Assembly (NCBI GenBank): GCA_020630095.1
Contig: JAHDCD010000004.1
Span: 83,251-147,250, forward strand
Source of the DNA: Rickettsiales bacterium
GTDB lineage: Bacteria > Pseudomonadota > Alphaproteobacteria > Rickettsiales > UBA8987
Length of the DNA stretch: 64,000 nt
Direction: 5' to 3'
Numbering within the stretch: position 1 is the first letter of the stretch; each line of letters starts with the position of its first letter. Shown piece after piece: positions 7,800 to 32,817 of the stretch. Under the pieces are notes generated by a model. That model searched no databases. It saw nothing but the letters and a program-made list of their open reading frames with translations, and had not been told where the DNA came from. The translations under genes and the position numbers were made by a program.

Positions 7800-7856
7800 A
7801 ATGTGAAGAAAAGTAGAAATAAAAACGGCGATGCAAGCCTAAACCTACACCGCCTA

Positions 7857-7867
7857 CCACAATTAAC
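7857..7867 (+). promoter_or_regulatory. Element-specific 11-mer CCACAATTAAC, copy 1
   Basis: Exact match. Embedded in the 20-mer cgcctaccacaattaacatg, which recurs inverted at 25656-25675. Confidence 0.6.
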
Positions 7868-7981
7868 ATGAATAATCATGCCAATTAAGAGGTATTATAA
7901 TTCAAGGGGTATTAAGATTAAAGGGGTTTTTAATTTTTAAGCTAACTTGTTGTTCTGATTGATTTTATATGAAGTTATGAT

Positions 7982-8020
7982 GTCGCTTTTACTTGACGGC
8001 AACTCTATTATGGAAAGAAT
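7982..8020 (+). promoter_or_regulatory. Candidate sigma70-type promoter cassette P1 (TTGACG -35 at 7993-7998)
   Basis: gtcgcttttacttgacggcaactctat is near-identical to the cassette at 9126-9152. An AAGAAT -10 candidate follows after a 16-nt spacer. Confidence 0.4.
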
Positions 8021-8051
8021 TAGAATTGTTCAACAAGAACAATAACTTAAC

Positions 8052-8062
8052 CCACAATTAAC
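8052..8062 (+). promoter_or_regulatory. Element-specific 11-mer CCACAATTAAC, copy 2
   Basis: Exact match ending 11 nt before the ATG at 8074. Confidence 0.6.
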
Positions 8063-8073
8063 ATAAGTAAATC

Positions 8074-8673
8074 ATGGCTAATATCTGCGAAAACATCATT
8101 CAAATTAATGCTAACAAAAAAGCAATCTCTAAAATGTTGGAGGTTGCCAAAACCCATAAAGAAACTTTACGAGGCGAAAAGTCTGAAGTTACCTTTTCAT
8201 TTTATCCATTCTGTAAAAATCTAGTAAGCAAGCCAAGCTCAACAATACTAGGAGAATTAGGCACTAATTATATTCCATATATTGCAGCTAATGAAGAATT
8301 TAACATCTTAATTCAAGATGGTGCTGTATTACTTTATTTTGATACTAAATGGTCTGCTCCAATAGGCGCTGCTTCAAATCTTCTTAAATGGCTTCAGAAA
8401 ATTGATAAAGAGGCTCATATTCGTATGAGTTATCAAGAATATGGAATGAATTTCTGCGGAATTTATATATCAGGTTGTGGGGATTTAGACTGCAACATAA
8501 CTGAGGATTACCATTACTTAGATGAGGAGTTTATAAAAGATATAGACGAGGCTGAATTAGATAGATTATCTAATATCTATGGGTTAAGCTCTGATGAATT
8601 AAAATTTAAGGCAAATGAACCTGACGGTGTTTATTTGTTTTCAGATTTTTATAAAGAAAATAGATTAGGTTAA
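8074..8673 (+). CDS. Hypothetical early protein (possible DUF1281/Api92-like fold)
   Basis: 199 aa. The N-terminal MANICEN, FDTKWSAP and YQEYGMNFCG patterns resemble DUF1281-type plasmid/phage proteins; this is from memory and unverified. Confidence 0.5.
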   Translation: MANICENIIQINANKKAISKMLEVAKTHKETLRGEKSEVTFSFYPFCKNLVSKPSSTILGELGTNYIPYIAANEEFNILIQDGAVLLYFDTKWSAPIGAASNLLKWLQKIDKEAHIRMSYQEYGMNFCGIYISGCGDLDCNITEDYHYLDEEFIKDIDEAELDRLSNIYGLSSDELKFKANEPDGVYLFSDFYKENRLG

Positions 8674-8677
8674 AATT

Positions 8678-9076
8678 ATGTTTAAATTAGAGCAAGCACG
8701 AAAGGAAGCAGAGGTTATTGCAACTCATTATGTTGAGGGTGATAACTACACAGCCGAAAGAATTGCTAATAAGCCTATATTATGCGGTTTAGTTACAGAA
8801 GTTATTTCTCGTAAGCACCCCCAAAAGCTATCTCGTTTTTTAAGAGAGTTGGTTAATTACTCAAATGATAATATTTTCATTATTTGGAGTTCTGATGATA
8901 TCAAAGAACGCCGCCCAGACTTAACAGATGAGCAATGTTACAAAGTTCTAAAATCATTAGAAAAGGATCACGAGTCGTGTTATGGCATAACTTGGGAAAC
9001 CATTGATAGCACGGCTGATTTCTTATTTAAAGAACCTGCTAACATATCAGAACTAAGGCTTAATTACTCAGGTTAG
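8678..9076 (+). CDS. Hypothetical early protein
   Basis: 132-aa ORF, 4 nt after the upstream stop, same strand as its neighbours. Confidence 0.5.
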   Translation: MFKLEQARKEAEVIATHYVEGDNYTAERIANKPILCGLVTEVISRKHPQKLSRFLRELVNYSNDNIFIIWSSDDIKERRPDLTDEQCYKVLKSLEKDHESCYGITWETIDSTADFLFKEPANISELRLNYSG

Positions 9077-9125
9077 GTATTTATTATAAATATCTGTATT
9101 TACTGGATATTCTGTTATTTTTAAG

Positions 9126-9165
9126 GTCGCTTTCTCTTGACGGTCAACCCTATATCTTTATTATA
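9126..9165 (+). promoter_or_regulatory. Candidate promoter cassette P2 (TTGACG -35 at 9137-9142)
   Basis: gtcgctttctcttgacggtcaaccctat repeats cassette P1. An ATTATA -10 candidate follows after a 17-nt spacer. The 11-mer starts at about the predicted +1. Confidence 0.4.
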
Positions 9166-9174
9166 AAGATATAA

Positions 9175-9185
9175 CCACAATTAAC
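9175..9185 (+). promoter_or_regulatory. Element-specific 11-mer CCACAATTAAC, copy 3
   Basis: Exact match ending 7 nt before the ATG at 9193. Confidence 0.6.
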
Positions 9186-9192
9186 AATTATC

Positions 9193-9597
9193 ATGAAACA
9201 CGAAGAAATCCTAAATGCCTCATACGAGGCAATCCTAAAGACCTTCCCGAATGTATTTGAGCTAAAGAAAGGTCAACCTGAAGCATATAATTTAGATCAG
9301 CTAAATATATGCACGCTTAAATATCTAGCCGAAGAATCAACGCATTTAATGTTTTCTATGACTTTTAGCTTCAGAGAAGAGCATGGCATTATTGAAGATA
9401 GAAGAATTGTTATAATCCTCGCTAAAAACTCAAGAAATGCAGTTCCTAAAGCAATTTGGTTTAATGGTGGTAATAGTAGTCGATGGGATAGTCGTTCTCA
9501 AGATGGTATATTAAGGGTGCACTATAGAATGTTAATTCGTTGGCTAGACCAAGTTAATGAATCTAGCCAACTTTCATTAAAAGCTAACCACAATTAA
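9193..9597 (+). CDS. Hypothetical early protein
   Basis: 134-aa ORF. Its last codons and stop are formed by 11-mer copy 4. Confidence 0.5.
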   Translation: MKHEEILNASYEAILKTFPNVFELKKGQPEAYNLDQLNICTLKYLAEESTHLMFSMTFSFREEHGIIEDRRIVIILAKNSRNAVPKAIWFNGGNSSRWDSRSQDGILRVHYRMLIRWLDQVNESSQLSLKANHN

Positions 9598-9598
9598 C
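9588..9598 (+). promoter_or_regulatory. Element-specific 11-mer CCACAATTAAC, copy 4
   Basis: Exact match overlapping the stop codon at 9595-9597, 17 nt before the ATG at 9616. Confidence 0.55.
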
Positions 9599-9615
9599 GA
9601 TATTTGGGTAAAGTT

Positions 9616-9852
9616 ATGCATTGCAGTAAAGAAAAGAAATTTATTAAAACATATACAACTAAACAAGCGCCTGAAGGTTGTACCTTCAAAGTTGGCGATA
9701 TTGTTACTTATAAAAATGAGTTTGGAGCATTATTTAAAAATCAAATCATTACTGGATTTGCATTAGAGCCGCTTAACGGTCGTTTTATTCATTTAGCAAA
9801 AGATGCCTACTGGTTTCCAGTTAAGGCATCAGAAATCAAAAAACAAAATTAA
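9616..9852 (+). CDS. Hypothetical small protein
   Basis: ORF track starts at TTG 9604. The first ATG is at 9616 (MHCSKEKK...), giving 78 aa. Confidence 0.45.
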   Translation: MHCSKEKKFIKTYTTKQAPEGCTFKVGDIVTYKNEFGALFKNQIITGFALEPLNGRFIHLAKDAYWFPVKASEIKKQN

Positions 9853-9864
9853 GGAGTTTATATT

Positions 9865-10269
9865 ATGTCATTTAATTCAAAAAAACTACAAACCTCAGGT
9901 TTTAATAAACTAAACGAGATGCTACCGTTTTTAAAAGATAGTATCAAAAATCAGGACAGCCATTACGGTTTATATTCTGAAACTTCGCCTGACATATCCA
10001 TTACAATTTTATTAAAGGATAATGAGGTATTAACTTTAGCACTTGCTCATTTCAATTCTTTTAATGGCAAATTAATTGCAGACCCTCAAATTACTATGGA
10101 AGTTAATTACAACCTTAAAACGGCTTATCCTATTGATTATAAGGACAAAGCTAAGCGGTTAACAGTTTTATCTCCTGAAGATGAAAATCTATTAGAAATT
10201 TTAAGGTTTCTAAATCATTGGCTAAGTAACCTATCGAATCATACCTACAAACTTGAATCAACTATCTAG
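9865..10269 (+). CDS. Hypothetical protein, paralog A of a tandem pair
   Basis: Shares LNxxMPFLKDS, ALxHY/F..NG.LIxDPxITMEV and FLNxWLSNL blocks with the next ORF. Confidence 0.55.
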   Translation: MSFNSKKLQTSGFNKLNEMLPFLKDSIKNQDSHYGLYSETSPDISITILLKDNEVLTLALAHFNSFNGKLIADPQITMEVNYNLKTAYPIDYKDKAKRLTVLSPEDENLLEILRFLNHWLSNLSNHTYKLESTI

Positions 10270-10279
10270 GAGAAACATT

Positions 10280-10675
10280 ATGGAAACTAAATTAGTAAAA
10301 TCCCAGCAAAATATATTTAAAAAGCTTAATAAGCTTATGCCATTTTTAAAAGATAGTAATGATTACTATTTTAAGCTCAAAGCTTCAGGATATATGGATT
10401 TATCAGTCGATATCCTCAGTAAGAGCGATGAAACTATAACTATTGCCCTATCTCATTATTTTGAACAGAATGGCGATTTAATTCCTGACCCTGACATTAC
10501 AATGGAAGTTGATTTTAAAGAGCAAACTGTGCTTCCGCTAGCCTATCAAGATAGCTTTGGTTATAGAAGTGCTGTAGTAGATGATAAGCCAGTTGAGAAG
10601 GCTGTAAAAGATTTACTTTCATTCTTAAACACTTGGCTAAGCAACCTAGCTAATCAAGGTCATAAAATAGCCTAA
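10280..10675 (+). CDS. Hypothetical protein, paralog B of a tandem pair
   Basis: Start refined to ATG 10280 (METKLVK), preceded by aggaga at 10268-10273. Colinear similarity to 9865-10269. Confidence 0.55.
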   Translation: METKLVKSQQNIFKKLNKLMPFLKDSNDYYFKLKASGYMDLSVDILSKSDETITIALSHYFEQNGDLIPDPDITMEVDFKEQTVLPLAYQDSFGYRSAVVDDKPVEKAVKDLLSFLNTWLSNLANQGHKIA

Positions 10676-10737
10676 AAATGAGTGTGAGAGCTATTTTTAG
10701 GTGTTAATTGTATTACTCCGTTATATAAATAAATTAA

Positions 10738-10748
10738 CCACAATTAAC
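10738..10748 (+). promoter_or_regulatory. Element-specific 11-mer CCACAATTAAC, copy 5
   Basis: Exact match, 13 nt before the ATG at 10762. A partial inverted copy, gttaattgt, lies at 10703-10711. Confidence 0.6.
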
Positions 10749-10761
10749 AAACGGAGATAAT

Positions 10762-11151
10762 ATGCAGACTAGCAATTTTTTTAATTTTACAGGTAATGGT
10801 AGAATCGCAATTTCAAGAAGCGTGCCTAGAGGTTTAACTTCAGGCTATCGCATCTACAGAAAACTTGCCCCAGGTGCTTGGTTTAAGGATTATAACGGTA
10901 ATCAAGCACTTTATAGAGAGCGTTACTTCAACGATATCTTATCTAAGCTTAATCCTGCTCAAGAATATGATATATTGCATGACTTAGTTAAAGGTCATGA
11001 GCCTATCTTATTATGTTGGGAAGATATCAATAAAAAAGGTCAATGGTGTCATAGACGCATGGTTGCCGAATGGTTCAAAGCTGAATTAGGCGTTTCTATT
11101 CCTGAATATAAGCCTGAAGCTAAACCCCTTCCACTATTTAATAATATTTAG
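10762..11151 (+). CDS. DUF488-like protein (putative)
   Basis: 129 aa. The layout (short N-terminal strand, LLCWEDINKKGQWCHRRMVAEWF near the C-terminus) resembles DUF488. From memory, unverified. Confidence 0.4.
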   Translation: MQTSNFFNFTGNGRIAISRSVPRGLTSGYRIYRKLAPGAWFKDYNGNQALYRERYFNDILSKLNPAQEYDILHDLVKGHEPILLCWEDINKKGQWCHRRMVAEWFKAELGVSIPEYKPEAKPLPLFNNI

Positions 11152-11157
11152 AATTTG

Positions 11158-11226
11158 GAGCGGCTACAAGGGATCGCACCTTGCTATTAGAGGGGAACTC
11201 TAATATCCAACTAATGGTCGCCGCGC
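11158..11226 (+). ncRNA. GC-rich structured element (two hairpins closed by a GCGGC/GCCGC stem); terminator or small RNA candidate
   Basis: Hairpins caagg-gatcgca-ccttg (11167-11183) and attagag-gggaa-ctctaat (11186-11204) are enclosed by gcggc (11160-11164) and gccgc (11220-11224), then followed by attttgt. Confidence 0.3.
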
Positions 11227-11310
11227 ATTTTGTAATAATACATTGATTTATATAGATATATTGCCGATAAAACCTTTACGGCAAAACCATTTTGGCTACA
11301 ATAATTTTAC

Positions 11311-11321
11311 CCACAATTAAC
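11311..11321 (+). promoter_or_regulatory. Element-specific 11-mer CCACAATTAAC, copy 6
   Basis: Exact match upstream of the long ParB-like gene, 29 nt before the ATG at 11351. Confidence 0.6.
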
Positions 11322-11350
11322 ATTTGCCGCATTTGCGGAGGAGTAAAATT

Positions 11351-13042
11351 ATGCAGAATATACCACTAAAATCATTATCTGTTTCTAAAGAATATAATGT
11401 TCGTAAAACCTCAACTAGCGCAGGCTTAGAGCAATTAAAGGCCAGTATTAAATCTCATGGATTACTTGAGAATTTATTAGTTATACAGCAAGGCAATAAG
11501 TTTGAAGTTATTGCAGGTGGCAGAAGATTAACTGCACTCAAAGAGCTTTCTAAAGAAGGCGATATCGCCAATGATTATAAAGTTCCGTGCGAACTTGTTT
11601 CATCTGACAATGCAGAAGAATTAAGCCTTGCTGAAAATTCTATTCGTGAACCAATGAATCCTGCTGATGAGTTTGAGGCATGGCAAAAGCTTGCTGATAA
11701 GGGCTTATCTATAGCTGATATATCTGCTAGATTTGCTGTAAGCGAAGATATGGTTAGAAAGCGTCTAAAGCTTGCTAATGTATCGAAAATTATATTTCAG
11801 GCATATCGAGATGAAAAGATAAACCTTGAATGTTTAATGGCTTATACAATTTCAGATAACCATAAGCATCAAGAAGAGGTATTTATTCAACTCAAAGACA
11901 CTTACAATCATAGCCCTTGGCAAATTAAAAGTTCTTTATCAAAGGATAAATACGATTCTTCAGACTCTATAGCTAAATATGTAGGTTTAGAGCCTTATGC
12001 AATAGCAGGTGGTGCTTACACTCAAGACTTATTCGAGGAAGTTACCTATTTTGCAGATACTGAATTATTAGAGCAACTTGCTAAGGATAAGTTAGAAGCT
12101 AGGGCTGAATCTATTTGTAATAACTGGAAATGGGTAAAAGTTATCCTGAAAAGCAGTTATGAAGATATTTATAATTATGAACGCTTATATGCCGGTGCTA
12201 CAGAATATTCTCAAGAGCAACGTGATATATCAGGCTGTATAGTTACCATTGGCTATAATGGCGAAGAGCAAATACACGAAGGTTTAGTCCTTCCTGAAGA
12301 TAGCATTAAAAAACAAGATGATTCATCAAAATCAAATTCTGATGAGCCTACTTCTGAATATAGCCGTTCCTTAAATGACCTTCTTAGCTTTTACCGCTTG
12401 CATTATGTTAAAACCAATATTGCAAAAGATTTCGAGCTATCATTTGATGTATTTGTTTATCAAATGAGCGTAAAGCTTTTATCTGATGATTATTTATCAT
12501 GGTCTGAAGATTGGCTTAAAATCAGTCCTGAAAAATTCTATTACGGTACAAATGCTCTAGAAAAGGATTCTAGCTTAGCCGAAATGGAACAATCAGAAAA
12601 TGAGTTTTATTCCAAACTTCCACTAGATTGGCTTAATTATGAAACTCCTAATGAAAGATTTGAGGCGTTTCGTAAGATTAAACAATCTGATAAAGAAAAA
12701 CTCTTTTCAGCCTGCATTGCTAGAACTCTAAAACCTCAACTAGCTGATAATACAGGAAGTAAGGTTTATGAATCTGCCATTTCATCTCTTGAGATAGATT
12801 TTACCAAAAAATGGCGACCAACTAAGGATAATTTCTTTAATCGAGTGACTAAAACTCAATTACTAGATATTGGTTTAGATGTAATCGGCACAGAATTTGT
12901 TGATAAATATAACAAGCTCAAGAAAGGCGAAATTGTCGATATTCTACACAGCATCTTTAATGAGCCTGAAAAGCATAAGCTAGATAAAGAACAGCTAAAG
13001 CTAGTTCAAAACTGGCTACCTGAAGGCTTTGTTAAGAGTTAA
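11351..13042 (+). CDS. Large ParB N-terminal-domain protein (ParB/Srx fold plus long uncharacterised C-terminal region)
   Basis: Start refined to ATG 11351 (ggagg at 11336-11340). Shows VIAGGRRLTALKEL and LSLAENSIREPMNPADE ParB-box patterns, followed by about 400 aa with no family I recognise. Confidence 0.7.
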   Translation: MQNIPLKSLSVSKEYNVRKTSTSAGLEQLKASIKSHGLLENLLVIQQGNKFEVIAGGRRLTALKELSKEGDIANDYKVPCELVSSDNAEELSLAENSIREPMNPADEFEAWQKLADKGLSIADISARFAVSEDMVRKRLKLANVSKIIFQAYRDEKINLECLMAYTISDNHKHQEEVFIQLKDTYNHSPWQIKSSLSKDKYDSSDSIAKYVGLEPYAIAGGAYTQDLFEEVTYFADTELLEQLAKDKLEARAESICNNWKWVKVILKSSYEDIYNYERLYAGATEYSQEQRDISGCIVTIGYNGEEQIHEGLVLPEDSIKKQDDSSKSNSDEPTSEYSRSLNDLLSFYRLHYVKTNIAKDFELSFDVFVYQMSVKLLSDDYLSWSEDWLKISPEKFYYGTNALEKDSSLAEMEQSENEFYSKLPLDWLNYETPNERFEAFRKIKQSDKEKLFSACIARTLKPQLADNTGSKVYESAISSLEIDFTKKWRPTKDNFFNRVTKTQLLDIGLDVIGTEFVDKYNKLKKGEIVDILHSIFNEPEKHKLDKEQLKLVQNWLPEGFVKS

Positions 13043-13146
13043 TGCTCTGTTTTATATGGGTTTTTTAGTCCGCATAGAGTCGATAACTCTGTACGGCTAA
13101 CTAACCTATTGATATAATTGAACTATATAAAACAACTCTCAATATC

Positions 13147-14061
13147 ATGAAACAAGGCACAGTAAGTAAAGCGGTTAATTCGCAAATAAGCGAAGTTAAA
13201 ACTTCAAAACTTTATGGCAATCCTGAACAAGCTAGAAAAATCTTTGATGCTGATAAGTTGAACGAATTAGCATCTTCCATTAAAGAGCAAGGCTTAATGA
13301 ATCCAATCGTAGTTCGTCCTGACAATAATGGCAATTATATGATTGTAGCAGGAGAAAGGCGTTTTAGAGCCTGTTCTCAAATCCTTAAGCTAGAATCCGT
13401 GCCAGTTATTATTAAGCAAATCTCTGATGCAGATTTAACCTATCAAATGATTATCGAAAACCTGCAAAGACAGGATATTTCGCCAATGGAAGAAGCTAGA
13501 GCTTATGCTAAAGCTATGCAAGACCATGAAATTGATGCTAAACAACTAGCTAAGAAACTAGGTATAGCACAGCCTCATAGAATTACTGATAGGGTTGCTT
13601 TATTAGCCTTGAAGGAAGATTATCAAGATTATCTGGCGCAAGGTATTATAACGCCTAGCCAAGCATATTACATGGCTCAAGTTAATAAGCCTAATCAAGA
13701 TGCTTTCTTCAGAATGATCCGTGAAGGCAAATGCGACAACGCCTCACTTGCCAATGTTGCTCAAGCTTTCATTGATGCTGAAAGCCAAAGTATTTTTGAT
13801 TTTGATATGCCAATCTTAAGCCAAGAAGAAGTTTCAACCATTAACAATATAGAAAACAGCATTGAGCGAATGTTTAAAATCGCATCAAAATGTTTCAATG
13901 ATGATGGCGAAATTACAATCTTACAGAAAATTGACAGCAATAAGGCTTCAACCATTGCAGACAAAATCAAAGTAATCTGCTCTTCAATGCAATCTGTTGA
14001 AAAGAAGCTTCGTGAACCACTAGCAAAAAAGAATGTTTTTGAGCAAATTAAAACCGCTTAG
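13147..14061 (+). CDS. ParB/Spo0J family partition protein
   Basis: MIVAGERRFRAC and IENLQRQDISPMEEARAY are classic ParB boxes, followed by an HTH region (LAKKLGIAQPHRITDRVAL). Confidence 0.8.
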   Translation: MKQGTVSKAVNSQISEVKTSKLYGNPEQARKIFDADKLNELASSIKEQGLMNPIVVRPDNNGNYMIVAGERRFRACSQILKLESVPVIIKQISDADLTYQMIIENLQRQDISPMEEARAYAKAMQDHEIDAKQLAKKLGIAQPHRITDRVALLALKEDYQDYLAQGIITPSQAYYMAQVNKPNQDAFFRMIREGKCDNASLANVAQAFIDAESQSIFDFDMPILSQEEVSTINNIENSIERMFKIASKCFNDDGEITILQKIDSNKASTIADKIKVICSSMQSVEKKLREPLAKKNVFEQIKTA

Positions 14062-14411
14062 TTGGTTAGGCAGAAAAAATGATTTTAATGAAATTCCCTT
14101 TTTTTAGGCTCCAATAATTCCAAAATTGCCGCGCAAAAAATTGATAAAAGGATTATCTTTCTACGGAACAAATTGGAAAAATATATGAGAAATAAAAGAA
14201 GCAAATTAGCTTCATAAATCAAGGATTCTAGCCATAAAAAAAGCTTCTCAAAGGAAGCTCTTTAAACGCAACAATGCGATTGTTCTTTTATAGATAAATC
14301 GAGCGTTACACAGAGTCAAGTAATTTTGTAAAAATTGGTGTTTTTTGACTAAAAACTAGATAAAACATATACAAAACTGGAAAAAACATAGTTATTATTA
14401 AGATAAATTAA

Positions 14412-14777
14412 TTGAATCTTAACCTATTGTCATTTAGCATTAATGCACAAGTGAAGTCATTTATTACATATTTCTCGGTGTTTTTACTGTTATTTGCTAA
14501 CATGGCGAATGCAGAGATGCTGTGCTGTTCAGATCATGCTGACGAGAATAATGTAGTATCTAGCTTAGATAATGAACATGATGATGACAATAATTCAGAT
14601 ACAGCATCTTCGTGTGATTGCTGTGCTTGTGCTAGCCATCATAATAATTTTAGTATGAGTAATGGCTTAGGCTTCTCTTATAATATTAGTCTAGAATATA
14701 ATAGAATCTCACTACAAAGCTCAAATTTATATAGTGACGATAATTATAGTTCACTCTATCGCCCTCCGATTGCTTAA
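14412..14777 (+). CDS. Small secreted Cys/His/Asp-rich protein preceding the RND operon (DUF2946-like?)
   Basis: TTG-start ORF with a hydrophobic N-terminus, CC..H..CDCCACASHH cluster and C-terminal YRPPIA. A similar small ORF lies at 45431-45754. The start codon is uncertain. Confidence 0.4.
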   Translation: MNLNLLSFSINAQVKSFITYFSVFLLLFANMANAEMLCCSDHADENNVVSSLDNEHDDDNNSDTASSCDCCACASHHNNFSMSNGLGFSYNISLEYNRISLQSSNLYSDDNYSSLYRPPIA

Positions 14778-14819
14778 ATTTCTTAATTAGAAACTTAAGT
14801 TAATTTAATCGGAATAATC

Positions 14820-16109
14820 ATGAAAAGAATAATAATCTGTAGCCTTATAATGGCTACTTCTGCGACTTATAGCATTAATGTATCTGCTAAAGAATCGCAT
14901 AGTAAACATCAACATAATAGCGTTGATTCAGTATATAAAAACAGGCAAACGCTAACTTTAGAGCAAGTAACGGATATTGCTTTGAAGTATTCGCCTGAGC
15001 TTAAATCTGTATCAAATGATATAGAAATTGCGAAGGCTAATAAGCTACAAGCAGGAGCATATAATAACCCTGAAATATTCTTTGAGGCAGAGAATATATT
15101 AGGCTCTGGTGTTTATAATGAGTTTGATTCTGCTGAATATAATGCAGGTATATCGCAGGAATTTGAACTTGGCAGAAAACGAGATGCTCGCAAGCAAATT
15201 GCTTTATCGCAAATAGACCAAGCTGAACTGAAAATTGATATAATAAAGCAGAAAATCAAGCGAGAGATTCACTTGGCTTATGCTCAAATTTTATCCGAAG
15301 AAGAGGAGCTGGAGCTTTCTTATAAGCAAGTAAGCCTTGCTAAAGATATGCTAAAATCAGTATCTAAACGAGTTAAGCAAGCTGCTGAAAGCGAGATACA
15401 GCAGAGCAAAGCTGAAATTATGCTTTCTAATGCTGAATTGAAATTAAAGCAGAATAAGAATCGCTTAAAATATTCAAAAGCAAAATTGGCAAGATTAATG
15501 GGTATTGAAAAGATTGATTTTTCGTTAGATCATTCACATTTCTTTGAGGCAAATAAACCTAAAGAAGTTGAGCATTATACCGCTAAAATTGGCAATATCT
15601 CTGATATTAAGCAATTTGAATATATCAAAGCTGAACTTGCGGCTAACTTAAAATATAATGAATATGAAAGCCTACCTAATCCTAATGTAAATATAGGTTA
15701 TCGTAATTTTTCAGATAGTGATGACCATGCTTTTATAGTTGGCGTTAGTCTGCCTATTCCAGTTTTTAATAAGAATGAAGGTGGTATTGCTAAAGCTAGG
15801 GCGGAACTCTCTAAAGCCGATTCAAGTCTTTCATTATTAAAGTTAGAATTAGAACAGCAGGTTCTTGAGCAATGGCAGATGCTTAATTCATCTTATCTTG
15901 AAGTTGAAGAGCTAAAGAAAAGCCTTATTCCATCAGCGGAGAAAGCCTTTAATCAAGCAAGTAGCAATTATGAGAGAGGTAAGTTCTCTTATCTTGAGGT
16001 GCTTGATACTCAACGCACATTATCGGAAGTAAAAGAGCAATATTACCAGTCCCTTAAAAATTACCATATCGCACAGGCGAATATTGAACGCCTAACATCA
16101 GGAGAATAA
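14820..16109 (+). CDS. czcC: Outer-membrane efflux protein (TolC/CzcC family)
   Basis: 429 aa, signal peptide, two-repeat OEP-type coiled pattern. First gene of a C-B-A RND operon with 2-nt and 21-nt gaps. Confidence 0.8.
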   Translation: MKRIIICSLIMATSATYSINVSAKESHSKHQHNSVDSVYKNRQTLTLEQVTDIALKYSPELKSVSNDIEIAKANKLQAGAYNNPEIFFEAENILGSGVYNEFDSAEYNAGISQEFELGRKRDARKQIALSQIDQAELKIDIIKQKIKREIHLAYAQILSEEEELELSYKQVSLAKDMLKSVSKRVKQAAESEIQQSKAEIMLSNAELKLKQNKNRLKYSKAKLARLMGIEKIDFSLDHSHFFEANKPKEVEHYTAKIGNISDIKQFEYIKAELAANLKYNEYESLPNPNVNIGYRNFSDSDDHAFIVGVSLPIPVFNKNEGGIAKARAELSKADSSLSLLKLELEQQVLEQWQMLNSSYLEVEELKKSLIPSAEKAFNQASSNYERGKFSYLEVLDTQRTLSEVKEQYYQSLKNYHIAQANIERLTSGE

Positions 16110-16111
16110 CT

Positions 16112-17173: not shown

Positions 17174-20912
<3,739 letters not shown>

Positions 20913-20970: not shown

Positions 20971-21017
20971 TTGACATACCCCGATTAGGTATGTTAATAT
21001 ACCCCTATGAGGTATAT
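20971..21017 (+). promoter_or_regulatory. Sigma70-type promoter (TTGACA-18-TAATAT) overlapped by two CsoR-type inverted-repeat operators
   Basis: TTGACA at 20971-20976 and TAATAT at 20995-21000. IR1 is CATACC-N7-GGTATG (20975-20993). IR2 is ATATACC-N7-GGTATAT (20997-21017). Confidence 0.6.
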
Positions 21018-21645: not shown

Positions 21646-21677
21646 TATAACCCTTAACCTTAATTGGAGAATAACTT

Positions 21678-22016: not shown

Positions 22017-22021
22017 TTATT

Positions 22022-22384: not shown

Positions 22385-22402
22385 CAAAAGGAGGATAGTT
22401 TT

Positions 22403-22693
22403 ATGACTAATTGTTGCGATAATAACCACCCTGACCATTCAGATGAAAATAGCCGCCTTAACCGCATGGCAGGGCAAGTTGAAGGTGTTAAGAAAATGAT
22501 AGAAGAGCGAAGATATTGCCCTGATATCGTTACTCAACTTAGAGCTATTCAATCTGCTGCTAAAGCTGTTGAATCAAATATCTTACGCAGACATCTTGAG
22601 GCTTGCGTAAAAGATACTTTTGCTTCAAATGATAAAGAAGAGGTGGAAAAGAAAATTAACGAGCTTTTGAAGATATTCACAAAGTTGGATTAA
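22403..22693 (+). CDS. CsoR/RcnR family metal-sensing transcriptional repressor
   Basis: 96 aa. RLNRMAGQVEGVKKMIEERRYCPDIVTQLRAIQSA with C...H..C ligand positions is typical of the DUF156/CsoR fold. Confidence 0.85.
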   Translation: MTNCCDNNHPDHSDENSRLNRMAGQVEGVKKMIEERRYCPDIVTQLRAIQSAAKAVESNILRRHLEACVKDTFASNDKEEVEKKINELLKIFTKLD

Positions 22694-25130: not shown

Positions 25131-25658
25131 TTATTCAGGAAAATCACTTTCCAATTTAAGAAGCATAAAGGTGCCGAAGTTACCGCCATTCTGGGGTCTA
25201 AAATCGCCAATGCCGATAGTGCTTCCTGCATAATAAAAAAGCTCTTTAAGCTCTGCTATAGAGATAGCATCTTCATTAAAGTTAAGCGTAAAGCTCAATT
25301 GCCAGCTATTAAGCATTGGTCTATGACACAACTCTCTTTGGCGGGTAATGCGTGATTTTACAGTTCGTGAATCAACCTCAAACTTATATTGATTAAGCGA
25401 GATGGCCCTATCTTTAATGTAGATAATACGGCCTTTAAACACATTCGAATTAATATTCGTGTGTTGGCAAGCTGAACGCAAGCTGGAAATAATATTACTA
25501 GATGGAACTTCAAGCTCTCCAGTATCCTTATTTCTATATGCTTTACGCTCAGCCTGCTCTTCGGCTTTTAGGGAGGTTATTTGTTTTAACTCTTCGTCAT
25601 TGATAAAACGATTCATTAACAAGGGGGTTATACCCTCGATAGTTATATTAGCTTTCAT
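25131..25658 (-). CDS. Hypothetical phage protein
   Basis: 175-aa ORF. Its ATG is directly abutted by 11-mer copy 7. Confidence 0.5.
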   Translation of the reverse strand: MKANITIEGITPLLMNRFINDEELKQITSLKAEEQAERKAYRNKDTGELEVPSSNIISSLRSACQHTNINSNVFKGRIIYIKDRAISLNQYKFEVDSRTVKSRITRQRELCHRPMLNSWQLSFTLNFNEDAISIAELKELFYYAGSTIGIGDFRPQNGGNFGTFMLLKLESDFPE

Positions 25659-25669
25659 GTTAATTGTGG
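25659..25669 (-). promoter_or_regulatory. Element-specific 11-mer CCACAATTAAC, copy 7 (minus strand)
   Basis: Exact reverse-complement match, immediately 5' of the minus-strand ATG at 25658. Confidence 0.6.
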
Positions 25670-25676
25670 TAGGCGT

Positions 25677-25973
25677 TTAGTTTTTCAAGGGCTTTTTCTC
25701 ATCAGCTTCTTCATTGATTAGCTTTGCTTTCTCAAGGTCATCTAATATTAAGTTCATTCTCTCTATTGTTTTAACTAGTGGAGAGGCTTTATTCTTCCGC
25801 CACCTAGAGAATGTTGAAGGCGCAACTGATGCTCTGGAGCATAATTCTGCTATAGAGATATTTAATTTAGCTGCCCTATTTTCAATTTCAGAGATTATCT
25901 GTTTTGAAATTTTGTCGGTTTTGTTTAAATCTTTACTCATTTTGCTATTTTTTATTGCGTTGTTTATTAGCAT
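25677..25973 (-). CDS. Cro-like HTH transcriptional regulator
   Basis: 98 aa with the HTH segment ISIAELCSRASVAPSTFSRWRKNK. Divergent from the CI-like gene. Confidence 0.6.
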   Translation of the reverse strand: MLINNAIKNSKMSKDLNKTDKISKQIISEIENRAAKLNISIAELCSRASVAPSTFSRWRKNKASPLVKTIERMNLILDDLEKAKLINEEADEKKPLKN

Positions 25974-26079
25974 ACTTGCAAAGGTTTAATAATAGAGTCA
26001 ATAATAAATGTTGCGATTTTGGGTGAATGTCTTATAAATAGTAACTAATAGTAGCAAAAAAGTTTCAGCAACTTACAAA

Positions 26080-27062: not shown

Positions 27063-27093
27063 TTGACGGCTTAATATCAAGGTGCAATATTCT
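27063..27093 (+). promoter_or_regulatory. Candidate promoter P3 (TTGACG -35 at 27063-27068)
   Basis: ttgacggc as in P1 and P2. A/T-rich -10 candidates lie at 27085-27093. The 11-mer starts at about the predicted +1. Confidence 0.35.
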
Positions 27094-27099: not shown

Positions 27100-27110
27100 C
27101 CACAATTAAC
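27100..27110 (+). promoter_or_regulatory. Element-specific 11-mer CCACAATTAAC, copy 8
   Basis: Exact match, 12 nt before the ATG at 27123. Confidence 0.6.
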
Positions 27111-27122: not shown

Positions 27123-27362
27123 ATGCAATCTACTAACTTTCAAGCGAAAGAGCCTCAGGATTTAGTTTTAGTAAAAGCTGAATCTTGGGGCGAAGTTTAT
27201 GTTGAGTATCTATCTATGCTAATGGGCTATGACGATATTTCATCTGAACAAAAGGATTTAATCCAAAATCTTAAACTATCCATAAACAATGCTGTTTCAC
27301 TAGCTAAGAAGCAAAGATTATTTGGCACGGCTGATATACCAAAACTACGAGCAGTTACCTAA
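27123..27362 (+). CDS. Hypothetical small protein
   Basis: 79-aa ORF, first gene of the rightward recombination operon. Confidence 0.45.
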   Translation: MQSTNFQAKEPQDLVLVKAESWGEVYVEYLSMLMGYDDISSEQKDLIQNLKLSINNAVSLAKKQRLFGTADIPKLRAVT

Positions 27363-27376: not shown

Positions 27377-28237
27377 ATGACTTTAGAAACTGGCCACATA
27401 GAAGTGCCAAAGCCTTCGTTGCACTCAGATAAAATCTATATCCGAGCTTCATCTTTACCAAGCTATGCAGACTGCGCAAGGCGAACGGCCGCTAAAATGC
27501 TTCAAAAAGACTTAGAGGCTATGGGTATAGAATTTAACTACAATCCAACTGGTATAGGGGCAACTATAGGCACTAGTACGCACGAAGGGGCTAACTCTAT
27601 ATTAGGCACTTTTATATCTGAGGGCTTTTTAGGTAATACCAATATTGCCATAGATGCCGCTCATAATAAATTTGAAGAAATTAGGCAATCTGAAGAGATT
27701 GTTTATGATGATATAACCCCTTCATACGATAGAGCCTCAATACAGCTAAAGGGCTTAATATCTTCATATAGGGAACATATTGCACCTAAAATTCAGCCAC
27801 TACAAATAGAATTAAGGCTTGAAGTAGATTTAGGCGACAGTTTTATATTAAGCGGTCAATATGATGTAAGGGAAATTAAGGCAATTCGAGATTTAAAAAC
27901 TGGTGCTGTTTCTCGTGGCAATATTGCTCAATACGGAGCCTACGCAATTCTTAATATATCTCATGGAAATAATATTGAGAGTTTAGTTGAGGATTATCTA
28001 CCTAGAAGCAGCTCAACGAAACAGCCTAGTTTTTATTACTATGATACGCAAACAGCCATAATTTCGGCAAAGAAAATCTTGAAGCAAATTAAGTCTGATG
28101 TCGCTGAGTTCAAGGCAACTCAAAACCCCTTCAGCTTTCAAGCTAACCCACAATCAACACTATGTTCAGATAAATTCTGCCCTGTATGGGGAACTGAATT
28201 TTGTAAAGAGCATAAACCAAAAGCTAAAAATGACTAA
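27377..28237 (+). CDS. PD-(D/E)XK exonuclease, Cas4-like (four-Cys cluster)
   Basis: DLKTGAV...IAQYGAY (D-x-K, QxxxY) core. One N-terminal Cys (YADCARR) plus C-terminal CSDKFCPVWGTEFC. Confidence 0.65.
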   Translation: MTLETGHIEVPKPSLHSDKIYIRASSLPSYADCARRTAAKMLQKDLEAMGIEFNYNPTGIGATIGTSTHEGANSILGTFISEGFLGNTNIAIDAAHNKFEEIRQSEEIVYDDITPSYDRASIQLKGLISSYREHIAPKIQPLQIELRLEVDLGDSFILSGQYDVREIKAIRDLKTGAVSRGNIAQYGAYAILNISHGNNIESLVEDYLPRSSSTKQPSFYYYDTQTAIISAKKILKQIKSDVAEFKATQNPFSFQANPQSTLCSDKFCPVWGTEFCKEHKPKAKND

Positions 28238-29207: not shown

Positions 29208-30889
29208 TGACTATAAAAGTACATATTAATAATTTTAGGCGAATAGAACGTGCCTTTATCGAGATAGCACCTGTTGCATTCGTGGTAGGCGAAAATGAAA
29301 ATGGTAAATCAAGCCTTGCTTTAGCTACCGCACTTACGGCAACTTCAACGCCCCTGCCAAAATCTATAACAAAATCTAATGCAAATTTGCTAGTTAATAA
29401 AAAGGCAGAGAGTGCAATAGCCACTATAGACAATGAAGGTGCAATATCTCAAGTTACATGGCCTCGAGCTGAATTTAGCCAAAAAGGTGCAGGAAAGCCA
29501 CTTTATACTACTGATTATGCAGTAGGTTTGAAAAGCATTTTTGATTTAACTAGGAGCGATAAAGCCTCTTATTTTGTTAATTTACTTAATGCAACTCCAA
29601 CTAAACAGGATTTACTATCCGCATTGCCTCGCTCTGTTTCCAATGAAGAAATTGACGAGATGTGGTTTCAAATCGAAGAAACTGGCTTTGAAGAAATCCA
29701 TGCCAACGCCAAAAAGAAAGAATCTGAACTTACTGGTGCATGGAAACAAATTACATCAGAGCAACGATGGAATATGAGCAAAGCTAAAGATTGGCGACCT
29801 CATGATTGGGAATTTGACTTAGAGAGAGCTGAAAAAGCCAAACTAGAACAAGAACTTGAAAAGCTTGAATCTGATTATAAAGAAGCATTAGCATCAGATG
29901 CTATTTCTGAAAACGAGAAGAAAGAAATAGAAATCAACAAATCTCTTATTCCTGAGCTTGAAAGGCGCATTAACGACTTAAAAGAAGTTATTAATGAGAA
30001 GTATGGATATATTGAAGAATTAGAAGAAGAATTGTTAGAGATTAGAGAATCTGACGGTAATTGCTGCCCTTGCCCCAGCTGTGGCACTCAGTTACTAATT
30101 AAACGCCATGAGCTAGAAATAGCAGAAGAAGACTTGCCAAATCTTGCTAATGAAGAAGATATTGAAAAGATAAATTCTCGTGTAAAATTATCTAAGGCCG
30201 AAATTAAGGAGTATGAAAGAGAGCTTTCTGAGGCTGAATTTACCCTAAAGAATTACAAGCAAAGCCAGCTTAAGCTAGAAAATGAAGCCAAATCTGATGC
30301 TGTGGATATTGAGTCTGTAACTTCATCATATAAAAATGCCAAAAAACGCCTAGAGAATTTTAACAAGGTAAATGATGCAATTTCTATTGTTGATAAGGTA
30401 ATGCGTCAAAAAGAGATTGTAAAAGTACTATCTCAAGATGGTGTGCGTAAAGATAGACTCGATGAAAAGATAGTTGAATTTAATAGAGATATATTATCTC
30501 CATTATGCGAACTTTACGGATCAGAGCAAGTTTACCTAGATAACAACTTAGATATTTATAGGGGTAAATTCCATTACTCTATGCTATCTCGCTCTGCTAA
30601 ATTTGCAGTTCGTACCATTATTCAAATAGCTATCGCTAAAATGGATAAATCAGAGCTACTAATTATTGATGATGTTGATGAGATAAATGCTAAAGAAAGC
30701 CGCTCATGCCTGTTTAACCTTATTGTTAAGTCTGGCATTCCAACATTAGTTTTAATGGCTAAACGCCCTGAAGAACATGCACCAGACTTAGAAGCAAATG
30801 GCTTAGGTAAAACCTATCTTATGAAAGATGGCAATATTGAACCATTTAACGAAGAAGAGGTGGAATTTAAGGAGGCGGCTCATGCCTAA
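29207..30889 (+). CDS. SMC/Rad50/SbcC-like AAA ATPase with a coiled coil and a central CxxC hook
   Basis: Walker A GENENGKSS, long heptad-rich middle with CCPCPSCG, C-terminal Walker B LLIIDDVDE. Confidence 0.7.
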   Translation: MTIKVHINNFRRIERAFIEIAPVAFVVGENENGKSSLALATALTATSTPLPKSITKSNANLLVNKKAESAIATIDNEGAISQVTWPRAEFSQKGAGKPLYTTDYAVGLKSIFDLTRSDKASYFVNLLNATPTKQDLLSALPRSVSNEEIDEMWFQIEETGFEEIHANAKKKESELTGAWKQITSEQRWNMSKAKDWRPHDWEFDLERAEKAKLEQELEKLESDYKEALASDAISENEKKEIEINKSLIPELERRINDLKEVINEKYGYIEELEEELLEIRESDGNCCPCPSCGTQLLIKRHELEIAEEDLPNLANEEDIEKINSRVKLSKAEIKEYERELSEAEFTLKNYKQSQLKLENEAKSDAVDIESVTSSYKNAKKRLENFNKVNDAISIVDKVMRQKEIVKVLSQDGVRKDRLDEKIVEFNRDILSPLCELYGSEQVYLDNNLDIYRGKFHYSMLSRSAKFAVRTIIQIAIAKMDKSELLIIDDVDEINAKESRSCLFNLIVKSGIPTLVLMAKRPEEHAPDLEANGLGKTYLMKDGNIEPFNEEEVEFKEAAHA

Positions 30890-31244
30890 TAAATCTCAAA
30901 CAAAACAAGAGTATGAGGCTATCTATAGCTTCATACTCTCAAGGATTAAAACCTTTAAGAAAGAGCGTGGTATAGGTAATGAGCTAATTGGTGATGCTAT
31001 GGGTTATTCTCAACAGCAAATATCCAAAATTATACTTGGTAGAAATCATTTAAGAGCAGCTTCGTTATTTCAGCTTGCTAAAGAATCTGGTGTACCAATT
31101 TCTTATTTTTTTCCACCTCAAGATAAAGAAGGGAAATTTGAGATTAAGAATCTCAAAAAACTAATGACTGATAAGGAGAATCTAAAAGCATTGGAGAATG
31201 CAGGTTCAGTAAATCAATTAATAAACATAATTAAAAATGACTAA
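30882..31244 (+). CDS. XRE-family HTH protein
   Basis: Start refined to ATG 30882 (aaggagg at 30869-30875). HTH at GDAMGYSQQQISKIILGRNHL. Confidence 0.6.
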   Translation: MPNKSQTKQEYEAIYSFILSRIKTFKKERGIGNELIGDAMGYSQQQISKIILGRNHLRAASLFQLAKESGVPISYFFPPQDKEGKFEIKNLKKLMTDKENLKALENAGSVNQLINIIKND

Positions 31245-31300
31245 ATTTTTAAACATCGCAAAGCACGGCATTTTAACAATCAACCTTAATAGAGGTAAAA

Positions 31301-31600
31301 ATGTCAAACAACGAAATTACAAAAGAGGAAATCAAATTAATGGTTCAGGATATGGTAAAAGCAGAACTTAGTAATTCTAAAGAGTTCAACGAATACCTTA
31401 CGCCAAAACAGCTATCTCAAAGATGGGGTGTAAGCCTTAAAACTCTTGATAGATGGAGATTTAATAGAAAACTACCTACATTTATCAAGACTCAAAATGT
31501 TCTTAAAGGCGGAATCCGTTACCCACTTTACGGAGATGGTGGAGTTTTGGATACAGAGAGTAAGTGGAAAGATGATGAAATAACACCACAAGAAATTTAG
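31301..31600 (+). CDS. Excisionase/AlpA-like DNA-binding protein
   Basis: LTPKQLSQRWGVSLKTLDRWR HTH, 99 aa, immediately upstream of the integrase. Confidence 0.6.
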   Translation: MSNNEITKEEIKLMVQDMVKAELSNSKEFNEYLTPKQLSQRWGVSLKTLDRWRFNRKLPTFIKTQNVLKGGIRYPLYGDGGVLDTESKWKDDEITPQEI

Positions 31601-31602
31601 AT

Positions 31603-32817
31603 ATGACCACAATTAACAAGAAACTTAAGCTAACCAAAACAATAGTAGAGAATGCAAAAACAAAAGAAAAAAGGTATTTTATTCATGATACTGAGGTTGA
31701 TGGATTATCTTTAAAGATTGAGCCCACAGGTTCAAAAACTTATGTATTTGAATATAGAGTCGGTTACGGTAGGCGAGGGAAATCAAAACGCTTAACAATA
31801 GGTAAGTCAAGTAAGGTAAATCTTGGGACTGTAAAAGATATAGCTAGAGAGTATAACGCTAAAATTTCACTTGGAGATGATCCGTCTGAAAAAATCGAAG
31901 CTGAAAAAAATAAAAATAGCTTTAAAGAGGCGATTGATAGGTTCTACGAGGAGCATACTAAAGTTCATAATAAAGAGAAATCTATAAGTAATGCAAAAGT
32001 TAAAAAGAAAAGTTTAACTGAATACTTTAAGAATTTTAATGTTGAGGATGTTGAGAAGAAAGACGTTAAAAAATTTATGTATGAAAATAGGCATAGACCT
32101 ATTCAAGCAAATAGATGCTTAGCTTACCTTTCTATTTTTATGAATCACTTAGAGGATTGGGGTATAAGGCCTGATAATACGAATCCTTGTAAAAGGATAA
32201 CCAAATACCCTGAAAATAAAAGGGATCGGTACCTATCAGATGAAGAGCTGAATAATCTGTTAGATGCGCTTAATATGATGGAGGAATATGAGAGTCTTCA
32301 TCATTTAGCATTATTCAGGCTTATTATATACACAGGCGCTAGAGTTGGAGAAATTAGAACCGCTAAATGGAGCTATGTTGATTATACTAAAAATCAACTA
32401 AACCTTCCAGACTCAAAAACAGGCAAGAAGGTTATAGATCTTAGCCCAGATGCGATGTCTGTATTAAACAGCTTAACTCCAATAGCAGGAAATGAATATA
32501 TAATTGCTAGTAACCTTTTGGCTAATGCGCCTATCAATAATCCAAAAAAGCTATGGAAAAGAATATTATCTAATGCAGGTATTGAGGACTTGCGAATTCA
32601 TGACTTACGCCACTCATGGGCTTCATTCGCCGTTCGAGCAGGATTATCACTTCCAGAAATTGGCGAAGCTTTAGGTCATTCTAGTTGGGAAACAACAAAA
32701 AGATATGCACATTTAGCTGATGAACAGCGCAAAGAGAACTCAAAGAAAGTAACGAATGTTATAAATGATATTACTAAGAAAAAATCTAACGTGGTAAAGG
32801 TTTCCTTTAATTCATAA
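31603..32817 (+). CDS. int: Tyrosine recombinase / phage integrase (P4-type, DUF4102-like N-terminus)
   Basis: N-terminal DTEVDGLSLKIEPTGSKTYVFEYRV. Catalytic region TGARVGEI, HDLRHSWAS, LGHSSWETTKRYAH. Confidence 0.9.
   Translation: MTTINKKLKLTKTIVENAKTKEKRYFIHDTEVDGLSLKIEPTGSKTYVFEYRVGYGRRGKSKRLTIGKSSKVNLGTVKDIAREYNAKISLGDDPSEKIEAEKNKNSFKEAIDRFYEEHTKVHNKEKSISNAKVKKKSLTEYFKNFNVEDVEKKDVKKFMYENRHRPIQANRCLAYLSIFMNHLEDWGIRPDNTNPCKRITKYPENKRDRYLSDEELNNLLDALNMMEEYESLHHLALFRLIIYTGARVGEIRTAKWSYVDYTKNQLNLPDSKTGKKVIDLSPDAMSVLNSLTPIAGNEYIIASNLLANAPINNPKKLWKRILSNAGIEDLRIHDLRHSWASFAVRAGLSLPEIGEALGHSSWETTKRYAHLADEQRKENSKKVTNVINDITKKKSNVVKVSFNS
31607..31617 (+). promoter_or_regulatory. Element-specific 11-mer CCACAATTAAC, copy 9 (inside integrase codons 2-5)
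   Basis: ATG ACC ACA ATT AAC. Exact match beginning 4 nt into the integrase ORF. Confidence 0.5.

Follow-up and report, generated by a model that had tools for sequence, protein, structure and literature searches.

A stretch of 64,000 nucleotides from a Rickettsiales bacterium (assembly GCA_020630095.1, contig JAHDCD010000004.1, positions 83,251 to 147,250; hereafter the window) carries a prophage in which the 11-mer CCACAATTAAC, here termed the box, recurs at the starts of genes. We describe the box together with a predicted small RNA of the same prophage that could pair with it. The genes at 293–7799 on the minus strand encode MuF, a SAM synthetase, a DUF4055 portal, TerL and a DAM-like/GNAT protein, a late region whose gene order is the same in related phages. 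The presence of these late genes means that the window begins inside the prophage, which continues beyond the left end of the window and, on the other side, ends at the integrase gene (31603–32817). The prophage also encodes two ParB-like proteins, DUF6908 and DUF488 proteins, a cro-like and a cI-like helix-turn-helix (HTH) pair, an exonuclease, RecT and an ATPase, and carries a xis-like gene.

A recount across the window gives nine exact copies of the box, eight on the plus strand and one (25659–25669) on the minus strand, just as the original prediction had listed them. Its estimate that fewer than 0.1 copies would be expected by chance also holds, with 0.06 copies expected from a dinucleotide-preserving shuffle and none of 100 shuffles reaching nine. 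When up to two mismatches are allowed the window contains 33 matches compared with 22 expected, which is little above chance. All 11 positions are invariant in the nine copies and conservation of the flanks is confined to a weak T-A-A on the upstream side and an A on the downstream side; the extension to TAACCACAATTAAC, which begins with TAACC, is present in four copies, as reported. The box has no dyad symmetry and is not self-complementary, contains neither a purine-rich core nor an AGGAG Shine-Dalgarno (SD) sequence, and has a mean predicted unpaired probability of 0.76, compared with 0.48 for random 11-mers of the phage region. No copy occurs in the divergent region between the cI-like and cro-like genes (25974–26079), in the 7.8 kb of late genes or in the approximately 31 kb of host DNA at 33–64 kb. 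The earlier statement that the flanking chromosome is free of the motif is therefore correct as a count, while the left flank on which it partly relied (293–7799) is the late region of the prophage itself, so that the motif-free host DNA amounts to only about 31 kb on the right, next to the 7.8 kb of late genes.

Eight of the nine copies are linked to genes and lie between 29 nucleotides (nt) upstream and 15 nt downstream of the start codon (a range of −15 to +29 nt), in a transcribed leader or at a cistron junction and never upstream of a −35 element. Recomputing the distances from the end of the box to the ATG returns the 0, 7, 11, 12, 13, 17 and 29 nt given originally, and the eighth copy does span codons 2–5 of the integrase gene. 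Agreement in orientation with the following gene, which had been claimed for every copy, is true of these eight; behind the copy at 7857 there is only a 6-codon open reading frame (ORF).

The first of the gene-linked boxes (8052–8062, plus strand) lies 11 nt before the ATG of 8074–8673 and approximately 25–30 nt downstream of a promoter at 7993–8020. The next, at 9175–9185 on the plus strand, falls at about +1 to +3 of the promoter at 9137–9164 (TTGACG-16-TATTAT) and 7 nt before the ATG of 9193–9597. It is followed on the same strand by a junction copy at 9588–9598, which contains the TAA stop codon of 9193–9597, lies 17 nt before the ATG of 9616–9852 and has no promoter called by the promoter scan. 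The box at 10738–10748 (plus) precedes by 13 nt the ATG of the DUF488 gene (10762–11151), and that at 11311–11321 (plus) is placed 8 nt after the −10 of the promoter at 11275–11302 (TTTACG-16-TACAAT) and 29 nt before the ATG of a ParB-like gene (11351–13042); the orthologs of both genes are boxed in relatives as well. On the minus strand, the box at 25659–25669 points with its own gene and abuts the ATG of 25131–25658, at the junction after the cro-like HTH gene (25677–25973). The box at 27100–27110 (plus) lies 8 nt after the −10 of the promoter at 27063–27091 (TTGACG-17-AATATT) and 12 nt before the ATG of 27123–27362, the gene that opens the exonuclease/RecT/ATPase/xis/int operon. The last copy (31607–31617, plus) is inside the integrase gene (31603–32817), and a second copy of the core ACCACAA (31585–31591, plus) lies 12 nt before the integrase ATG.

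The TTGACG hexamers that had been noted upstream of two boxes begin 38 nt before the copy at 9175 and 37 nt before that at 27100, and the promoter scan calls both of these promoters as well as those at 7993–8020 and 11275–11302. The −10 and the box are separated by 7–8 nt in four of five promoter-linked copies of the window, and several copies have no nearby promoter. Imperfect copies are also present. A near-copy, CCACAATCAAC (28148–28158, plus strand), lies inside the ORF 27377–28237 and agrees with the extended 15-mer TAACCACAATTAACA at all but one position (14/15), and a partial copy, ACAATCAAC, is found at 31276 upstream of the xis-like gene. The near-copy is followed by a 3-codon ORF much as the copy at 7857 is followed by its 6-codon ORF (7868–7888), the latter being simply part of the hairpin 1 palindrome described below. 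The only other copy on the minus strand is a 9/11 partial one at 10703–10713 (the plus strand reads GTTAATTGTAT), which lies inverted 24 nt upstream of the box at 10738 and could fold back on that box in read-through transcripts, with the DUF488 promoter in the loop.

A predicted RNA on the minus strand at copy 7857

Read on the minus strand, the copy at 7857–7867 is the exact complement of the box (GUUAAUUGUGG, 7867→7857; the anti-box) and is part of a predicted RNA of approximately 70 nt (7815–7886, running 7886→7817), which would be both the leader of the late operon and a small RNA. Hairpin 1 of this predicted RNA is formed by 7886–7861 and is followed by a terminator hairpin (7854–7827) and a U-tract (7826–7817); the terminator scan of the minus strand gives a stem of 12 pairs, four of which are G·U, and then GTTTTTATTT. 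The minus strand folds into the two hairpins with −29.2 kcal/mol (z −6.05), compared with −9.1 kcal/mol (z −2.3) for the plus strand. A candidate promoter on the minus strand at 7894–7922, with TTTAAT (7922–7917) and TATAAT (7899–7894) separated by 17 nt, comes from our own scan and lies below the threshold of the promoter tool since its −35 matches at three of six positions. As its −10 ends 26 nt before the anti-box, transcription would be expected to start near 7886. Rfam gave no match at E ≤ 1 in 7700–14200, nor any that reached the gathering score in six relatives.

The first gene of the late (packaging and head) operon, the DAM-like/GNAT gene (6450–7799, minus strand), has its ATG 17 nt after the U-tract and would therefore be reachable only by read-through of the terminator. 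There is no second promoter between the terminator and this gene. Among the relatives treated below the same layout is seen in L002, and it is not present in L001, L003, L006, L007 or L084. Copy 7857 is probably a regulator rather than a target, a role that the original prediction missed. The repeat that this copy shares with the inverted copy at 25659 is real, and is 22 nt long (CGCCTACCACAATTAACATGAA) rather than the 20 nt first reported.

The predicted RNA is complementary over 12–13 nt to seven of the start regions, and its nucleotides 7851–7872 are complementary over 22 nt, including the AUG, to the start region of 25131–25658. After the cost of unfolding is taken into account, the predicted net gain from pairing ranges from −9.7 to −20.1 kcal/mol in all eight targets, while 43 control start regions give a mean of −4.6 kcal/mol and a best value of −9.5 kcal/mol. 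These eight target sites belong to at least five transcription units and are spread over 24 kb. The 22-nt match also reaches the first three to four pairs of the terminator stem, and in the predicted complex the stem is cut from 12 to nine pairs.

Boxes and orphan copies in related phages

Related loci, designated L001 and so on, were analysed with no more than 10 kb of sequence to either side of the ParB-like gene. The relatives of the ParB-like protein encoded at 11351–13042 are 38–43% identical to it, and the nearest loci are phage contigs and metagenome-assembled genomes of Alphaproteobacteria or Rickettsiales. Among isolated phages none had a full-length ParB-like match, a plasmid search gave only czc-like matches, and exact-protein look-ups returned only the source assembly itself, at 100% identity.

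The original prediction had suggested looking for the motif in related prophages, and the answer is twofold: these phages carry boxes of their own at the same places, built round the core ACCACAA or, more loosely, AACCA, and the sequence of the box is specific to the genome rather than that of the window. The versions are ACTACCACAACC in L004, L056, L084 and L085 and in L005 and L007, AACCACAAAACC in L006, CAAACCACAAAAA in L003, TAACCACAACAAACC in L001 and AAACCATT(N)AACCAA in L002, which has 33% GC. A search of IMG/VR with the exact promoter-plus-box pattern gave 10 single matches, all apparently due to chance, and no contig with multiple copies.

Anchoring the sequences on CCACAA aligns homologous promoters (GTCGAATTTTGTGGACGG...TAGAAT), with the −10 ending 9–12 nt before the core in 16 of 18 copies from relatives; the two exceptions, at approximately 24 nt, are both in L084. 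This spacing places the beginning of the box at about +1 to +4 of the mRNA. Downstream, the box continues as a C/A-rich stretch to the SD sequence and the ATG, and the G content of these leaders is 7%, compared with 21% upstream of other genes. The distance from the box to the −10 (mostly 9–12 nt) is tighter than that from the box to the SD sequence (7–20 nt). Units of AACCA repeat at spacings of approximately 6, 7 or 8 nt, a variability not expected of a phased dimer on DNA. L084 (9945–9965 and 16000–16020) and L007 (9945–9965) have small 5′ hairpins (TTGGCActatTGCCAA) that separate the transcription start from the box, the genes concerned in phages of this type being those for the ParB-like protein and ParB2. 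At two L084-type promoters the 13-nt hairpin puts the box approximately 23–24 nt from the −10, still beside the SD sequence. The boxed orthologous genes, the junction copies without promoters, the hairpin insertions, the variable AACCA spacing and the predicted unpaired state together indicate that the box is tied to the message and not to the promoter.

The early promoters themselves share a −35 box, T(T/G)(G/T)ACGG(T/C)(C/A)A (TTGACGG(T/C)(C/A)A), whose best form is the palindromic TTGACGGTCAA. It is located at 7993–8002, 9137–9146, 11275–11284, 13090–13099 and 27063–27072 of the window and is found also in L001–L007 and L084, and an upstream GTCG..TTT is likewise common to the early promoters and kept across the relatives. 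This −35 box is a better operator candidate than the 11-mer, with no statistical significance in the window alone. A different kind of repeat is seen in GC-rich distant relatives. Close to contig ends and some 10 kb from the ParB-like gene, these have short repeats in dense arrays (L017 250–500, L028 140–360 and L019 310–525, and also L055), which consist of (C/G)CCGCACA in both orientations and AGGTTGGGCA. These arrays look like iteron or centromere sites that are unrelated to gene starts.

Each of six genome types (L001, L002, L003, L006, L007 and L084) carries one orphan box per locus that is not followed by an ORF; L004, L005, L056, L085 and L212 repeat two of these six types, and the hold-out L212 is of the L007/L084 type and thus not independent. 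The orphan is on the strand opposite to the targets and sits between a promoter-like site and a GC hairpin. The order is promoter-like site, hairpin A, anti-box (UUGUGGU with genome-specific flanks), GC hairpin and U-rich tail, with an extra terminator hairpin between the GC hairpin and the U-rich tail in the L084/L007 type. The loop of the GC hairpin is GUGGUU in five of the six genome types and GUGGUA, on an irregular stem, in L084. A hairpin with the loop GGTGGTTCC is found exactly once each in L001, L002, L003, L005, L006 and L007, always on the anti-box strand. The orphan of L002, like that of the window, belongs to the leader of the DAM-like late gene and follows TTGAAA-16-GATAAT.

The minimum free energy of the minus strand is below that of the plus strand in seven of seven cases. 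In the orphan hairpin eight of 10 pairs show compensatory changes, and approximately 16 cells of the alignment are G·U on the minus strand while none is A·C; it is these G·U pairs, together with the promoter-like sites and the U-tails, that assign the orphan to its strand. The anti-boxes match the leaders of their own genome over 10–15 nt compared with 6–9 nt for the leaders of most other genomes, and between related pairs the cross-matches reach 12 nt (L084/L007) and 10–12.5 nt (L003/L006). A search of IMG/VR for TTGTGGT-N7-13-GGGGTGGTTCCC gave four matches, three of them in this phage family. The matches in metagenomes (n = 32) were mostly chance-like, and the three in the family comprise two known types and a new one of low GC content, L190, which carries the clean terminator UUCUUUUUAUUU.

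Interpretation and competing explanations

The original prediction had left a choice between an operator for an HTH or ParB-like protein and a conserved RNA signal in the 5′ leader. The leader signal is favoured by the orientation of the copies, their position in leaders and at junctions, the C/A-rich and G-poor continuation, the AACCA units, the predicted single-strandedness and the complementary predicted RNA, while the operator is disfavoured by the lack of a palindrome, the lack of copies in 25974–26079, the copies without promoters and the existence of a separate, partly palindromic −35 box. We give a probability of about 0.5 to a model in which the C/A-rich leader box is the shared target of an antisense RNA of the phage, this RNA being predicted. 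The 11-mer would then be a C/A-rich single-stranded RNA element in the translation-initiation region of eight early or accessory mRNAs, among them those for anti-defence-like proteins, the ParB-like protein and the integrase, as well as those of the gene in second place in the leftward operon and the leading gene of the recombination operon. The predicted antisense RNA would start near 7886 on the minus strand and end at the terminator (7854–7817) just upstream of the late operon, and pairing through GUUAAUUGUGG, within −40 to +15 of the AUG, would mask the ribosome-binding region or lie directly beside it. Such pairing would block binding of the 30S subunit or silence an enhancer, as GcvB does on C/A-rich enhancers, and the eight genes would be regulated together, most likely by repression. 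We infer the production of the RNA, its pairing in vivo and the sign of the regulation. A single pairing partner would explain why the copies are identical with sharp edges, why there is one version per genome and why there is a structured copy without a gene; the box is kept even over a stop codon (9588) and over integrase codons 2–5 (31607).

Several points weigh against this model. The promoter, the start site and the RNA are all predictions, and the −35 in the window is weak (3/6). Hairpin 1 takes up seven of the 11 anti-box bases in its 3′ arm, which leaves only GUGG and the following UA, immediately ahead of the terminator, as a toehold. The best relative in the collections searched is 43% identical, so that the comparison bears on the boxes of the family and not on the 11-mer itself, and the more distant relatives (L213 and, on brief inspection, L008 and L146) keep just a short AACCA box; in L213, at 36% identity, this box is weak and no orphan was found. 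The alignment of orphan hairpins was trimmed by hand from individually folded hairpins, because on untrimmed regions MAFFT and RNAalifold put the stems out of register and recovered next to nothing, and the full pairing in it is partly by construction. In L001, L003, L006, L084 and L007 the z-scores are similar on both strands and the U-tails are weak or moderately U-rich. The match between orphan and leaders would also be expected if the orphan were one more plus-strand copy of a homogenised box.

The box could instead be a purely cis-acting translational enhancer or ribosome standby site, an unstructured C/A-rich leader that loads the 30S subunit, possibly via S1. Known enhancers of translation are C/A-rich and ACA elements placed upstream of the start codon, with CA repeats effective also downstream of it (PMC5934652, PMC3879156). 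The leaders of the relatives are poor in G and rich in C/A, the box of the window is predicted to be single-stranded, SD sequences are missing from most of the host and phage genes in the window, and promoter-initiated mRNAs have the box at their very 5′ end. A lack of structure, however, does not need 11/11 identity in nine sharp-edged copies, and neither the uniform, genome-specific versions of the box nor the structured orphan without a gene, present in the window and in each close relative examined, is explained by an enhancer, which we regard as rather unlikely to be the whole answer. Unlikely, too, is an asymmetric protein site, either a stoperator-like DNA site for a monomeric phage repressor that, depending on orientation, stops initiation at +1 and elongation at cistron junctions, or an RNA site for a phage translational repressor or nuclease of the RegA/RegB type. 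The pattern is that of the L5 stoperators (PMC9283540); four copies overlap a predicted transcription start, the spacing to the −10 in relatives is tighter than that to the SD sequence, and the phage has several HTH and two ParB-like proteins. Against a protein site, there is no copy in the switch region (25974–26079) or in the 7.8 kb of late genes, the L084-type hairpin shifts the box away from the −10 yet the box stays by the SD sequence, the G-poor composition reaches beyond any 13-bp site, and the core is kept across hosts at approximately 40% protein identity, which is unusual for immunity sites. No two-domain repressor of the L5 type was recognised, Pfam giving only HTH_3-type domains and the PDB no match for the 302-aa protein, and searches of the unidentified ORFs with PHROGs and Pfam gave no RNA-binding or antiterminator candidate.

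The complementarity could also work in reverse, with the box-bearing early mRNAs, chiefly the junction RNA at 25659, weakening the terminator in the late leader and causing RNA-mediated antitermination of the late operon. The terminator is only 17 nt before the first late gene, which leaves no space for another promoter, and the 22-nt match enters its stem, but only one of the eight targets reaches that far, nine pairs with a U-tract may still terminate, and the orphan is not before the late operon in L001, L003, L006, L007 and L084; we consider this very unlikely. A combined scheme, in which the late leader doubles as a trans-acting small RNA that shuts the eight early genes, the integrase gene among them, while the 22-nt early junction RNA opens the terminator, would amount to an all-RNA switch from early to late expression in a family of temperate phages of Alphaproteobacteria and seems to us quite unlikely. 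We hold it highly improbable that the copies derive from promoter-leader cassettes, inherited or shuffled, or from recombination junctions, with RecT and the exonuclease keeping them uniform and the 11-mer having no function of its own. Units of promoter plus leader are indeed homologous within and between genomes, RecT and an exonuclease are encoded, and the 22-nt repeat at 7851 and 25656 resembles a duplicated junction. However, the promoter parts differ and conservation ends abruptly at the 11-mer, there are copies without promoters and inside coding sequence, and the core survives at approximately 40% protein identity, where neutral DNA would be randomised. Sites for the host cell-cycle regulator CtrA, with the motif TTAA-N7-TTAA, are known in phages of Alphaproteobacteria (PMC9437464), the host here is an alphaproteobacterium and the copy at 8052 reads TTAA-N7-TTAAC, but the N7 spacing occurs in one of nine copies and N6 in two of nine, the invariant CCAC would fall in the unrecognised spacer, and the higher-GC relatives have no TTAA in the box, making a CtrA site scarcely credible.

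Some further candidates were rejected. Arm-type integrase sites do not fit copies that extend over 24 kb, far from any att site, and a promoter for an alternative sigma factor or a phage RNA polymerase does not fit a box that is downstream of ordinary −35 and −10 elements and in one copy abuts the ATG. A sigma-70 pause element could be read into the CACAAT of the window, but the relatives have ACCACAACC, with no T, and the resemblance to a DnaA box (TTATCCACA) is partial and not kept in relatives.

Prophage setting and relation to known systems

The host is taken to be an alphaproteobacterium because of the gene transfer agent (GTA) “megatron” and murC genes, the former being a baseplate gene at 52605–56204 (NCBIfam, E 5.9e-301), and has approximately 35% GC. 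Heavy-metal cargo at 14412–22693 lies between the ParB2 gene and the leftward operon and is czc-like, with an RND efflux set of the OEP/HlyD/AcrB type (14820–20293), a CDF transporter, an HMA protein and a CsoR-like repressor. Directly after the integrase gene, at 32864–36244, there are genes for a WYL/WCX-domain protein and a DUF2779/Cas4-like protein, which may be a defence or cargo module at the edge of the prophage. A comparison of the left region with the sequence beyond the integrase gene, made to find attL/attR or the ends of the element, gave no direct repeat other than the motif itself. Between the DUF488 gene and the promoter of the ParB-like gene, a cloverleaf-like fold (11160–11226) has a 5-bp closing stem and three hairpins, with z-scores of −2.5 on the plus and −3.5 on the minus strand; ARAGORN and Rfam gave no match for it. 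The sequence CCAGACTTAAC occurs at 8915 (plus), 24442 (plus) and 30725 (minus) with no common relation to genes, and since the three copies share no flanks they are probably due to chance.

The C4 RNA of phages P1 and P7 is a phage antisense RNA that pairs with short repeats in its own transcripts. In P4 the CI RNA (seqB) pairs with repeated seqA/seqC sites, and in the case of IsrK of Gifsy-1 one promoter gives both a terminated, short trans-acting RNA and a read-through mRNA (PMC4825925). As at the IsrK locus, a terminator here separates the predicted promoter from the first operon gene, and a second promoter is lacking. It differs from P4 CI, C4 and IsrK in that these have one or two sites in a single operon, whereas here there are eight, all at start regions. 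GcvB of Salmonella and E. coli, a terminated small RNA, uses a G/U-rich single-stranded region to pair with C/A-rich enhancer elements within or ahead of the ribosome-binding sites of many mRNAs (PMC5934652, PMC3879156). As with GcvB, the targets in this prophage are C/A-rich, predicted to be accessible and found on several mRNAs, in the ribosome-binding site or ahead of it. The predicted RNA is not related to GcvB in sequence or through Rfam, however, the predicted regulator and its targets are here within one prophage, and the box is identical in all targets while the GcvB consensus is loose.

The start-associated sequences (SAS) of Cluster K mycobacteriophages are 13-bp asymmetric repeats in the non-structural region, all in one orientation and just upstream of start codons. 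They sometimes contain the upstream stop codon, are absent from the host, and their function is unknown, with an RNA or a protein partner left open (PMC3203893). The box of the window is likewise short, asymmetric, oriented with the genes and absent from the late genes (293–7799) and from the host DNA at 33–64 kb. While SAS hold an AGGAG SD core and lie 3–7 bp from the start, the box has no SD sequence, is 0–29 nt upstream or just inside the ORF and often at the 5′ end of the transcript, and has a candidate complementary RNA. The stoperators of L5 and Cluster A phages are asymmetric 13-mers at promoters and in short intergenic gaps whose orientation follows transcription (PMC9283540), and an asymmetric box at promoters and gaps, with its orientation tied to transcription, is what we find here. 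Stoperators are genome-wide, also at the early promoter under repressor control, and bind a monomeric repressor with an HTH and a “stoperator” domain. In this prophage such a repressor was not recognised and copies are missing from the switch region and the 7.8 kb of late genes, and the leaders of the relatives show constraints at the level of RNA. The closest described pattern is therefore that of the Cluster K SAS, and the closest mechanism is that of GcvB together with the phage antisense RNAs. The new element is that one predicted RNA of a phage matches eight start regions of its own genome, in at least five transcription units, in an arrangement that is conserved across a lineage without a cultured member.

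Short repeats at the starts of phage genes have been on record for more than 10 years without a known mechanism, the mycobacteriophage SAS being the best described, and the comparative data presented here give a concrete hypothesis that can be tested genetically. Even if the RNA did not exist, the box would still be a family-conserved signal of the 5′ leader in a host that rarely uses SD sequences. If the RNA is real, the phage would contain an internal antisense regulator of a whole regulon, in a lineage without a cultured member, and a candidate RNA family outside Rfam, with a possible RNA link between early and late transcription. Should the all-RNA switch also prove true, the same logic might explain other, so far unexplained “start-associated” repeats of phages.

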